From NCBI GenBank assembly GCA_951812955.1, contig OX638340.1:1120001-1184000 (forward strand): a DNA stretch of 64,000 nt. Reading direction: 5' to 3'. Positions within the stretch are counted from its first letter, which is position 1. Every line of letters begins with the position of its first letter. Shown in pieces: positions 61,389 through 64,000 of this stretch. The notes below the pieces were generated by a model. That model was not told where the DNA came from. It saw nothing but the letters and a program-made list of their open reading frames with translations, and searched no databases. This DNA is from an uncultured Gemmatimonadota bacterium (GTDB lineage Bacteria; JAAXHH01). The position numbers and the translations under genes were made by a program.

Positions 61389-64000
61389 ATGCCCTTGATT
61401 TACATTCGTGCCATACCCGTGTTCATATGTCTTGTATTGTTCACTCTGACCACCTGCGGCAAGGACAGCCCCACCAGACCGAAGCCGCCAGATCCACCGC
61501 CGCCAGTAGTGCCCGTAGCCACCCGCATTGACATCACTCCGCCTTCTGCCACGTTGAACTCGGTTGGCCAGACTATTCAACTCAACGCAAGAGTCCTGGA
61601 TCAGAACAACGCGCCAATTAGTGGCGCAGCCGTGACATGGACCAGCAGCGACAACGGCGTGGCTACCGTCACCGTCCAGGGGTTGGTAACTGCGGTAAAG
61701 AACGGCACGGCACGGATCACAGCCCGATCAGGTAATATCTCTGCAAATGCGAATGTCACTGTGTTACAGACAGCCGGTAGTATCGTTATCGAATCGGCTA
61801 TGACGACGCTAACAGCCATCGGTCAGACCGTCCAGCTGACGGCGAATGTACTGGATCGTAATGACAAGCCGGTAGCCGGTGCTGTCGTGACCTGGACGAG
61901 CAGCGATGCGTCCGTAGCAACGGTCAACGAACAGGGGTTGGTGACGGCCGTCAAGAGTGGCGGCACACGGATCACGGCACGGTCAGGCAGCGCCTCAGCA
62001 GGCATCACTGTTACGGTAATGCAGTCGGTAGCAAGTATCGTGATAGAGCCTGAGATGGCGACGCTCATGTCGATCGGCGAGACCGTGCAACTCACCGCCA
62101 CCGTTCTAGATCAGAACCGGCAACCAGTAGATGATGCCGTCGTCACCTGGCAGAGCAGCGATGAGGAAGTGGCCACCGTAAGCGCTGCAGGACTCGTTAC
62201 CGCCATCGGCAACGGCATGGCAACTGTCACCGCCAGATCAGGCAACGCCTCGCAGACGGCAACCTTGACTGTGACGATCCTTGATACACGACGCGACCGA
62301 GAAGCCCTTGCCGCACTGTATCATAGTACGGATGGACCGAATTGGACCAACAACACGAACTGGCTGAGCGATGCGCCTCTAGACTCATGGCATGGCATAG
62401 GAACTACCACACTTGGAGAGGTTCAGTATCTGAATTTGGGGGAGAACAATCTCCACGGCATCATCCCACCTGAAATAGGCAAACTTCAAAAACTGACAGT
62501 ACTGGCGCTCTACGGCAATAGTTTGACCGGCAACATCCCGCCCGAAATCGGACAGTTACAGAACCTGACAGATCTTAATCTCGGCGACAACGAGTTGAGC
62601 GGCCCTATCCCCACTGAAATAGGGCAACTTCAAAAACTGACAGGTCTTACTCTCGCCGGCAACCAGTTGAGCGGTCCAATCCCCCCTAATATAGTGCAAT
62701 TGCTGGAACTAAAATTCCTGTGGCTCGGCGGCAACCAGTTGAGCGGTCCTATCCCCACTGAAATAGGGCAACTTCAAAAACTGACAACTCTATGGCTAGG
62801 CGCTAATCAACTGACCGGCAACATCCCGCCCGAAATCGGACAGTTGCGAAACCTTACTGACCTAAATCTTGATTTTAACCAGTTGTCTGGATCCATACCC
62901 CCCTTAATCGGACAACTACAGCATCTGAAATTCCTGCGGCTGAATGGCAACCAGTTGACTGGATCCATTCCGCCCGAAATCGGACAGCTTAGCATGCTTA
63001 GGTTCTTGAACATGGCCTTCAATCCCAATCTTTCGGGGCCATTACCGGTAACAATCACCTCTCTTTCCAACATGGAATCCCTGAGTTTGCACTACACTCA
63101 AGTATGTATTCCTCCTACCGCCCAATTCCAGTCATGGTTAGACGGGATAGAAAACATAAGAGGCGATATTTCTAGCTGTCCAGGGCCAGAGGGACCAGTG
63201 GAACCGGAAGAACCGGAAGAACCGGAAATGCCGCCTCCTGTCGGAGAGCGTCTGGACGTGAGGATTGTTTATTTTGTTCCTGCAAATCATACTGGATACC
63301 CGAACATAGATGCCAAGATAGATTCGTTGGTCAACATCGTCAAATTGACTTATGCGGAGATATTTGAATTTCATGGCTTCGGCGATAGAACCTTTCAGCA
63401 CGAGCAAAATGCGGATGGCACGGCCAGGGTATATCATGTGAAGGGCCAATACGATGGCGAATACTATTCCAGCGAAACATTTTTTAAGGTTATACATACC
63501 GAATTGGAACAGATATTCGATTTAGAATCGAATATTTACTGGGTCGTATTGGATGCTATCGATGCAACTGTAGATGGTTATTGCGGGCAAGGGTATGGTG
63601 ATCTTCCTGAGGGCGGCGCGTTTTTAATACCCGGACCAAACGACTACTGGTTGGAGGATCGCGGGTGGAGTTGTTTCAACCCATCAGTTGCATCCCACGA
63701 AATCGGACATTCCTTTGGTCTAACCCATGACCTGCTCAGAGACGAAGTGCGTGTCGAGTCCTCATATCAAGATGACTGGATGATTACTTCGTATTGTGCC
63801 GCCGAATGGATGTCGGTACATCCATTCTTCACCGGCGAACCAACCACGGGGAATGACAATGAGGGTGAAATAAGTCTAAGGTCGATTTCTGATGCTTCAT
63901 CCGAGACTATCCGCCTGGTTTTCGATGTGAGCGACCCCGATATGCTGCACCAGGCTCAACTTCTTGATAGAAACGGAGAAACGATAGCCTACCGTGGATT
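61389..64000 (+). CDS. Large lipoprotein with 3 Big_2 Ig-like domains, about 9 plant-specific-type LRRs and a metzincin (HExxHxxGxxHD) protease domain; 3' end beyond the window
   Basis: Not in the ORF track (open at the window edge). Hand translation from ATG 61389 shows no stop to 64000. [26 protein letters not shown] lipobox; three repeats of ...[13 protein letters not shown].N...V....VTW.SSD..VATV...GLVTA...G.A.ITARSG; LRRNT-like [34 protein letters not shown]; 24-aa LRRs L..L.L..N.[25 protein letters not shown]. Confidence 0.85.
   Translation, partial: [870 protein letters not shown]

Follow-up and report, generated by a model that had tools for sequence, protein, structure and literature searches.

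Two O-glycopeptidases of the gut Verrucomicrobium Akkermansia muciniphila, the Tn-antigen-specific AMUC_1438 (PDB entries 8DEK and 8DF2) and OgpA (Amuc_1119, 'OpeRATOR'; 6Z2D, 6Z2O and 6Z2P), were described by Medley et al. as the founders of a large, sequence-diverse metzincin family that is unclassified in MEROPS (PMC9513282). The sole Pfam signal of this family is a short match to PF12044, and its catalytic domain packs on a beta-sandwich (PMC9513282). Here we analyze a stretch of 64,000 nucleotides from an uncultured Gemmatimonadota bacterium (assembly GCA_951812955.1, contig OX638340.1, positions 1,120,001 to 1,184,000 of the forward strand), which as a whole we call the window. At its 3' edge (61389-64000, plus strand) lies a gene for a leucine-rich repeat (LRR) protein whose protease domain, judged by profile comparison and structural modeling, is a metzincin of the OgpA/AMUC_1438 lineage and not, as a first-pass annotation had proposed, one of the adamalysin/reprolysin type.

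The window domain shares 16-18% identity with AMUC_1438 and 12-15% with OgpA, and the proteins around the domains are built differently. AMUC_1438 has an NPCBM/CBM51-like module where the window protein has Big_2 domains and LRRs, and OgpA is a stand-alone enzyme of ~370 residues, unlike the multidomain window protein. Moreover, the source of AMUC_1438 is a gut bacterium, not a sponge symbiont. Sponge symbionts are rich in eukaryote-like repeat proteins whose molecular function is largely unknown. Kamke et al. (2014), in whose account the phylum Poribacteria is widespread in marine sponges and dominant there, count and discuss the repeat domains of such proteins, and a term search of their text finds neither 'peptidase' nor 'protease' (PMC3909097). 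The relatives of the window protease in Poribacteria and Latescibacterota are proteins of this kind, with WD40, LRR or immunoglobulin (Ig) domains and signal peptides, and the FlgD_ig-type C termini of some relatives may match the Por-secretion sorting domains noted in the same work. The window protein differs from these repeat proteins in having LRRs of the plant-specific (PS) class and Big_2 domains in place of LRR_4 or WD40 repeats. Searching the literature, we came across no specific report on this protease family in sponge symbionts.

The LRRs themselves have described bacterial counterparts, as Xanthomonas XopL, XopAE and XopAC and the Leptospira LIC proteins contain the same 24-residue LxxLxLxxNxLSGxIP class. 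All of these lack a protease domain, being type III effectors or surface adhesins. The plant-specific LRR class is thus already known in bacteria and its name is correct for the window LRRs; what is new is the Big_2/PS-LRR architecture inside a known but barely characterized protease lineage.

Placement of the protease domain

The catalytic domain spans 63240..63833 (plus strand), and a Pfam/NCBIfam scan of it gave no family-level match. Reprolysin_3/4/5, Astacin, Peptidase_M10 and PF12044 all remain below their gathering thresholds and cover 13-32 residues around the zinc motif. Among the reprolysin families, each with matches of 20-32 residues, Reprolysin_4 scores 18.8-21.8 (cut-off 22), Reprolysin_3 19.4-21.2 (cut-off 22.4) and Reprolysin_5 17.2-19.2 (cut-off 27). 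The weak PF12044 match is the Pfam signature that the window domain and its relatives have in common. Searching 5.8 billion protein clusters with the single sequence of the domain returned five relatives only, and the family became visible only through patterns and profiles. When compared with PDB sequences, a 6-sequence profile retrieved OgpA (6Z2D) and AMUC_1438 (8DEK/8DF2) at E≈1e-9, and a 42-sequence profile retrieved the same two enzymes at E values of 6.4e-17 to 8.8e-17 over profile positions 7-174, with the next metzincin following at 2.4e-4.

The same neighbors emerge from an AlphaFold model that was built from an 89-homologue alignment (predicted local distance difference test score, 91.2; predicted template-modeling [TM] score, 0.88). 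The nine best PDB matches in Foldseek are all OgpA or AMUC_1438 (TM, 0.57-0.63), and 231 of the 256 model residues superpose on 8df2. Snake-venom metalloproteinases and fragilysin form a second tier (TM, 0.32-0.42). This is in line with the work of Trastoy et al., who reported the same second-tier neighbors for OgpA itself (TACE, 11.3; atrolysin C, 10.9; PMC7518263). Beta-strands at model positions 214-255 follow the catalytic domain and mark the start of a beta-sandwich 'post' domain, which is cut by the window end (63864..64000, plus strand). This second domain is kept in nearly all relatives and is complete in the orthologue on metagenome contig LXNJ01008791.1 (hereafter L081), which was found by a scan of metagenome contigs.

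Because the three traits described for the OgpA/AMUC_1438 family are all present in the window domain and its relatives, we assign the domain to that lineage. The metzincin catalytic fold is present in the model, and neither an M12B enzyme as nearest structural relative nor an M12B propeptide was found. Adamalysins and ADAMs (MEROPS M12B; ADAM17 and atrolysin C) superpose over ~150-170 residues and are clearly farther from the model than OgpA and AMUC_1438, and the window protein has no M12B propeptide, cysteine switch or disintegrin domain. The adamalysin/reprolysin assignment of the first-pass annotation is therefore rejected, since its Pfam scores are sub-threshold and limited to the zinc motif and OgpA and AMUC_1438 lie ahead in both profile and Foldseek comparisons. 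The broader part of that annotation, a metzincin-fold zinc protease joined to an LRR solenoid of the plant-specific class, is borne out, with profile, model and PDB matches in agreement.

Zinc site and Met-turn

The zinc motif HExxHxxGxxHD, already recognized in the first pass, is located at residues 770-781 (63696..63731, plus strand; H770, E771, H774, H780 and D781). The three histidines and the glutamate are invariant in both the 42- and the 89-sequence family alignments, and the glycine at domain position 163 is invariant in the former and kept in at least 90% of the latter. D781 is conserved as Asp in 41/42 and 85/89 family members, so that an Asp after the third His is also common to the OgpA-like sponge family.

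The Met-turn is less uniform. Most family members read 'HDFRxDAYIMSYG', with a Met approximately ten residues after the third His (domain position 177), while the subclade of the window protein has Ser at this position (SSY) and the Met of 'DWMITS' seven residues later. Across the 89-sequence alignment, Met occupies position 177 in 62 sequences and position 184 in 24; both positions are filled in one case only, in the 42-sequence alignment, and are otherwise mutually exclusive. The profile alignment places the family's 'MSYG' on 'KKYG' of OgpA and pairs domain Tyr179 (Tyr793) with OgpA Tyr226. Its ungapped extension brings Met184 onto OgpA Met231, both at Tyr+5, and the Met of 'xM(I/V)TS' matches the OgpA spacing. 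OgpA Met231 is the Met-turn residue in the crystal structure (PMC7518263). At the sequence level, Met798 (domain position 184; 63780..63782, plus strand) therefore appears to be the Met-turn methionine that a metzincin requires.

Gene extent and domain architecture

The frame that opens at the ATG at 61389 comprises 870 sense codons and is still open where the window ends, as the first reading of the sequence had it, and it is absent from the list of open reading frames (ORFs) solely because frames running off the window edge are not listed. A Shine-Dalgarno-like purine-rich stretch, AAGAGGCAAGGAA, precedes it at 61373..61385 (plus strand). We looked for a stop or frameshift and found none in the 870 codons, and the frame of L081 runs on to its own stop, 65 residues past the last codon of the window. 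Based on this orthologue, the full-length window protein is expected to have ~935 amino acids, which makes it large but not 'giant', as it had been called.

The protein begins with a signal peptide that ends in LTTC (Cys23; 61389..61457, plus strand). The usual lipobox consensus is [LVI][ASTVI][GAS]C after a hydrophobic h-region. Positions -3 and -2 of the L-T-T-C sequence fit this consensus, but the Thr at -1 falls outside [GAS], so that the proposed lipobox is present in a possible, non-canonical form and the assignment as a lipoprotein is plausible, not secure. A Pro-rich tether (61458..61514, plus strand) leads to three tandem Big_2 Ig-like domains (residues ~43-125, 126-210 and 211-295; 61515..62273, plus strand), which the Pfam annotation recovers as three stretches with an E value of 8.6e-32, as expected from the first reading.

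The LRR arm starts with an N-terminal cap (62274..62420, plus strand). Its sequence can be aligned to N-terminal portions of the ectodomains of plant TDR and PSKR1, which gives partial backing to the 'LRRNT-like' label, but the alignment is itself only partial, Pfam LRRNT_2 (PF08263) has no match at E<=1 in the window protein, and the Cys pair of an LRRNT_2-type cap is absent from residues 296-344. Nine 24-residue units with an exact 72-nucleotide (nt) period follow (62421..63068, plus strand). They have the number and class first estimated: N.L[ST]G.IP is present in 7/9 units, which places them in the plant-specific class as defined in PMC5976695, and the best solved matches are the plant receptor kinases GSO1 (3e-157) and FLS2 (3e-142), with Leptospira LIC proteins, among them LIC11098 and LIC12759, ranking lower. 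In Pfam, the region matches LRR_14 (4.6e-32), LRR_1 (7.6e-29) and LRR_8 (2.2e-16). NCBIfam returns XopAE (3e-25), XopAC (2e-21), LIC_11051 (1e-18) and also XopL, all with scores far below the family cut-offs, and these matches therefore concern the repeats only. A C-terminal cap with two Cys residues, kept in L081, closes the array (63069..63179, plus strand), and an acidic Pro/Glu linker (63180..63239, plus strand) joins it to the protease. The linker includes the PEEPEEPE sequence that had been noted ahead of the zinc site, and Tandem Repeats Finder (TRF) resolves a 9-nt x3 repeat in it at 63201-63227.

Remodeling of the LRR array

The whole-genome shotgun project of L081 is a microbial metagenome of the sponge Petrosia ficiformis (PMC5099237). 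Its protein is 94% identical to the window protein across the protease domain, and the two loci share 89.7% DNA identity over 1.5 kb. Although cut at its 5' end, L081 has at least 12 LRR units compared with nine in the window protein, with further units at the position of the window N-cap. The DNA identity of the units between the two genes is a mosaic of 58-99%, in which units 3 and 7 reach 94-99% and units 4-6 only 58-72%, while the protease is uniformly 96.4% identical; the acidic linker differs by a 3-amino-acid indel. From this mosaic beside a uniformly conserved protease, and from nine versus at least 12 units, we conclude that the LRR array is being remodeled through the turnover of whole units, at a pace well above that at which the enzyme diverges.

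Within the window gene, the DNA strings reported as shared between LRR units are both exact: a 32-mer occurs at 62611 and 62755 (the second copy had been placed at about 62757), and a 29-mer occurs at 62529 and 62817. Near-identity holds for such sub-unit stretches but not for whole units, which are at most 83% identical in DNA (units 3/5; 75% for units 2/6). Units 3 and 5 use the same codon at 16/19 conserved residues and units 2 and 6 at 14/18, compared with 6.2 and 6.0, respectively, expected from the codon usage of the gene. Parts of the units thus carry the footprints of recent duplication or gene conversion. The earlier description of the array as 'recently expanding' is thus right about remodeling, but unit turnover or gene conversion is the better term.

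As a separate observation on the two enzymes, the conserved Cys of 'TSYCAAEW' (domain C189), which is Cys in the window protein and in most of the family, is Gly in L081, while its partner in 'SCFN' (C148) is retained there. A possible disulfide is thus lost in one lineage.

Family size, fusion partners and hosts

When one genome for each GTDB species was scanned with a pattern, at least 210 relatives were confirmed, the best 80 of which were kept as loci L001-L080. The window genome is not one of these species representatives, and the best match among them is 50% identical. Of the 80 loci, 64 come from metagenome-assembled genomes (MAGs) of Candidatus Poribacteria and 12 from MAGs of Latescibacterota, and the rest belong to Bryobacterales, Terriglobia, Rhodothermales and one unclassified genome. 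An exhaustive profile search of 1.84 billion cluster representatives returned 2,365 matches with E<=1e-10, of which 1,234 reach E<=1e-30. We observe that the catalytic and beta-sandwich core is constant across the family and that the fusion partners vary, with N-terminal WD40 propellers, C-terminal internalin-type LRR_4 arrays, Big_1/invasin, FlgD_ig and EF-hand domains; some members (338-398 amino acids) have no partner at all. Plant-specific-type LRRs, an N-cap or a similar Big_2 module were found in none of the 340 family members compared, indicating that the architecture of the window protein and L081 is a distinct hybrid.

In a neighbor-joining tree without support values, the window protein and L081 form a long branch that is sister to a clade of Latescibacterota, Bryobacterales and Terriglobia sequences. 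The family as a whole is dominated by Poribacteria in this tree, and Latescibacterota appear at at least three places.

Several Poribacteria genomes hold more than one copy of the gene (e.g., OZ240248.1, OZ242029.1 and CBDBPM010000002.1). On a further contig (L083; ena:ERZ25766727 ctg335496_3x_l), a 49%-identical member (P0010, 6001-8258) is directly followed by a DDE_Tnp_1 transposase and lies near a heparinase II/III-like gene, another link of the family to mobile elements and matrix-degrading enzymes.

Composition and horizontal acquisition

With respect to composition, the 30 core genes of the window have a guanine-plus-cytosine (GC) content of 0.618±0.023, as the first estimate of ~62% had it, and a GC content at third codon positions (GC3) of 0.754±0.063. 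The LRR-protease ORF differs from them in both (GC 0.518, GC3 0.552). Its GC3 is graded along the gene, from 0.64 in the Big_2 domains through 0.54 in the LRRs to 0.48 in the protease. The 42-48% GC first attributed to the gene fits the protease part only (0.445-0.505 in 400-nt windows) and not the ORF as a whole. The gene thus lies 10 GC points under the core and its protease part 14.5 points under, at a GC of 0.473 that equals the Poribacteria mean. Among loci L001-L080, the gene matches its surroundings in Poribacteria (GC 0.472 versus 0.468 in the flanks), whereas in the Latescibacterota, Terriglobia, Bryobacterales and Rhodothermales MAGs it lies 2-8 GC points below the flanks, which hints at Poribacteria as the reservoir of the family. 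In L081, the gene has a GC of 0.485 and is followed at once by genes with a GC3 of 0.75-0.79. Because this independent assembly shows the same contrast, we regard the contrast as real and not as an assembly artifact.

Immediately upstream of the gene lies a decayed remnant of an IS3-family transposase (59803..61274, minus strand). The minus strand at 61274 reads MTLKRRLFTREFKLQVL*, which we take to be an IS3 OrfA-type start. Fragments of the integrase core remain as rve (PF00665; 60579-60821, E value 1.8e-15) and rve_3 (60306-60524, E value 1.9e-10), and the transposase frame is split into several short ORFs by stops and frameshifts. Composition, tree pattern and the flanking IS3 remnant, taken together, support a transfer between phyla inside the sponge microbiome, followed by domain shuffling. 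Horizontal acquisition, which the first-pass annotation had put forward as an inference, is accordingly backed by the GC3 (0.55 versus 0.75±0.06), by the same contrast in L081, by the insertion sequence (IS) remnant and by the phyletic pattern. The annotation of the window is corrected to a protein of ~935 amino acids whose protease domain is not a reprolysin and whose gene is part of an accessory island beside a dead IS element.

Proposed function and alternative explanations

The reading that we favor, with a probability of roughly 0.6, is that a sponge-associated bacterium makes a secreted, LRR-targeted, OgpA-like zinc endopeptidase that acts on a host protein. The ~935-residue enzyme would be exported and either tethered, probably to the membrane, or released at the cell surface. 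The three Big_2 domains would form a stalk after the Pro-rich tether, and the capped nine-LRR solenoid would serve as an arm that recruits a ligand or substrate. The concave face of the LRRs would dock on an extracellular protein or glycoprotein of the sponge host, and the linked protease would cleave the docked protein or a neighbor of it. In the active site, His770, His774 and His780 would hold the zinc, Glu771 would act as the general base that polarizes the water, and Met798 would underpin the site. The protease core would be a mobile module of sponge-microbiome bacteria, above all Poribacteria, that is swapped among eukaryote-like repeats (WD40, LRR and Ig); in the window gene it would have gained a Big_2/LRR arm and arrived by horizontal transfer next to an IS element. 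That the protein is at the surface and catalytically active, what kind of substrate it has and that it acts on the host are what we infer from these data. The role in host interaction suggested earlier is plausible from the sponge-metagenome orthologue and from the Poribacteria and Latescibacterota labels of most family MAGs.

Several observations weigh against this reading. The sponge association of the window genome rests on L081 and on the labels of related MAGs, the 3' end of the gene is taken from L081 and not from the window genome, and the nearest relatives beyond L081 are just 50% identical. The tree is a neighbor-joining tree without support values. In addition, the lipobox is non-canonical with its Thr at -1, the canonical Met of the family's 'IMSYG' is replaced by Ser and the placement of Met798 under the zinc site derives from sequence only, and the aromatic column of the glycan platform is Asn150 (domain numbering) in the window protein.

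Instead of a targeted attack on the host, the enzyme could be a nutritional exoprotease that digests host matrix or dissolved proteins so that amino acids and peptides can be taken up, with LRRs and Big_2 domains as mere cell-surface spacers or adhesion modules. A secreted metzincin with non-catalytic binding domains would suit such a role, and other genes of the window specify an OppA-type peptide-binding protein and sodium/solute symporters, as well as a second, decayed trypsin-like protease in the neighborhood of the gene. However, the peptide transporter lies 30 kb off and does not share the orientation of the gene. The fast turnover of the LRRs beside a 96%-identical protease is more typical of a recognition surface that tracks a changing partner, and the family has been fused repeatedly to WD40 and LRR interaction repeats, not to carbohydrate-binding or generic anchoring domains. 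We therefore consider a purely nutritional role doubtful, though not negligible.

The homology to OgpA and AMUC_1438 suggests a more specific activity, namely, that of an O-glycan-dependent mucinase that cuts N-terminal to glycosylated Ser/Thr residues of sponge mucin-like glycoproteins, with the LRR arm in the role that carbohydrate-binding modules have in other O-glycopeptidases. The two enzymes are the closest to the window domain by profile and fold and have the catalytic and beta-sandwich core in common with it, both are strict O-glycopeptidases (PMC7518263, PMC9513282), and the Met-turn spacing is OgpA-like (+18 here versus +16 in OgpA). Sequence identity is nevertheless only 12-18%, and the aromatic platform residue expected to bind the glycan is not kept. 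In AMUC_1438, the putative glycan site is made up of Tyr171 and Tyr217, with Phe and Trp as their equivalents in OgpA (PMC9513282). AMUC_1438 Y217 and OgpA W199 lie six residues ahead of the first zinc-binding His, in the column where the window protein has Asn and most family members have a non-aromatic residue (N in 35, S in 10, Q in 9, G in 7, A in 5 and H in 5 of the 89 sequences). The second aromatic, AMUC_1438 Y171, lies in a loop that is an insertion relative to the family profile; window Tyr117 is three residues from this position and is conserved only in the window subclade. Since the platform aromatic is not kept, the substrate type cannot be transferred from the solved enzymes. Thus, homology to the O-glycopeptidases is firm, transfer of their O-glycan dependence is not supported, and the missing aromatic platform points to different substrate rules. 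A mucinase of the Akkermansia kind is, in our judgment, unlikely.

That the enzyme is an adamalysin/reprolysin (M12B) protease is very improbable: the Asp after the third His, the weak Reprolysin_3/4/5 matches (E values of 1e-3 to 1e-4) and the M12B enzymes in the second tier of structural neighbors speak for it, but the Asp is a family trait here and OgpA and AMUC_1438 are closer by profile and by fold. Equally improbable, and rejected, is an assembly chimera with a mis-joined low-GC Poribacteria fragment or a decaying, non-functional gene, as might be suspected from the Poribacteria-like protease GC of 0.47, the pseudogenized trypsin-like gene and dead IS element next door and the truncation at the window edge, since L081 independently joins the same LRR-linker-protease gene (89.7% nucleotide identity) to high-GC, core-like genes, the frame is open over 870 codons and reaches a stop in L081, the catalytic residues are intact, and the closest Poribacteria homologue is ~40% identical.

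The finding bears on sponge symbionts more widely. A sizeable set of their repeat proteins holds a metzincin core that is intact and shares homology with the O-glycopeptidases of Akkermansia. At 50% identity, this set amounts to over 1,200 clusters and is, judged by the best 80 of at least 210 loci, found mostly in Poribacteria and Latescibacterota MAGs. These repeat proteins thereby gain a biochemical activity that can be tested, together with a modular logic in which a binding arm is joined to a protease, and the OgpA/AMUC_1438 family, so far characterized only in a gut mucin degrader, is extended to animal symbionts. The alternative Met-turn position and the missing aromatic platform may help to tell subfamilies apart and to direct the mining of enzymes as glycoproteomics tools. 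More tentatively, and with less confidence than we have in the favored reading of the window gene, the sponge-microbiome clade may constitute an unrecognized, horizontally circulating protease system that uses repeat domains (WD40 propellers, internalin-type or plant-type LRRs and Ig domains) as interchangeable targeting arms. If so, the arms would bring a single conserved OgpA-like core to particular host proteins, and surface receptors or matrix glycoproteins of the sponge might, for example, be shed in this way, with evasion of phagocytosis or remodeling of the mesohyl as the outcome. Many eukaryote-like proteins of sponge symbionts would then be enzymes and not decoys, and the window gene would be a hybrid whose plant-type LRR arm evolves fast.

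Gene neighborhood and further observations

Atypical features extend over the entire final ~9 kb of the window. A 786-amino-acid hybrid two-component protein (GAF-PAS-HisKA-HATPase_c-REC-Trans_reg_C; 55058-57418, minus strand) has a GC3 of 0.64, below that of the core, which suggests that the atypical island begins at ~55 kb. It is followed by a trypsin-like gene (Trypsin_2, Trypsin and Peptidase_S46; 58434-59147, plus strand) that is a probable pseudogene, with an in-frame stop after 58760 and the same frame resuming at 58776. A 251-amino-acid ORF without a family match overlaps it on the minus strand (58281-59036). Between the trypsin-like gene and the IS3 remnant, a 183-amino-acid protein with collagen triple-helix repeats (PF01391, E value 2.6e-8; 59211-59762, plus strand) represents another eukaryote-like protein beside the LRR-protease gene; it starts like a lipoprotein (…MLVFTAC) and contains a long run of prolines, and its GC is 0.645 with a GC3 of just 0.55.

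Outside the island, MutL of the window is 82-86% identical to that of NCBI-labeled Gemmatimonadetes MAGs and 94-99% identical to that of ENA assemblies, and the 560-kb contig of a close relative (L082) shows synteny in the MutL region, with the target locus ~20 kb away. Scanning the window for Rfam families and tRNAs gave only a tRNA-Trp (13353-13427), from which we conclude that no RNA element is involved. A second GC dip (0.52 versus 0.61) occurs at 22001-24000, around a 258-amino-acid ORF (22267-23043) with unusual GC at its codon positions (GC1 0.42, GC2 0.55). Near the 5' end of the window, a 706-amino-acid protein (1159-3279, minus strand) that is repeat-rich and exported weakly resembles ScyF and ScyE, which are NHL-repeat/PEP-CTERM proteins.

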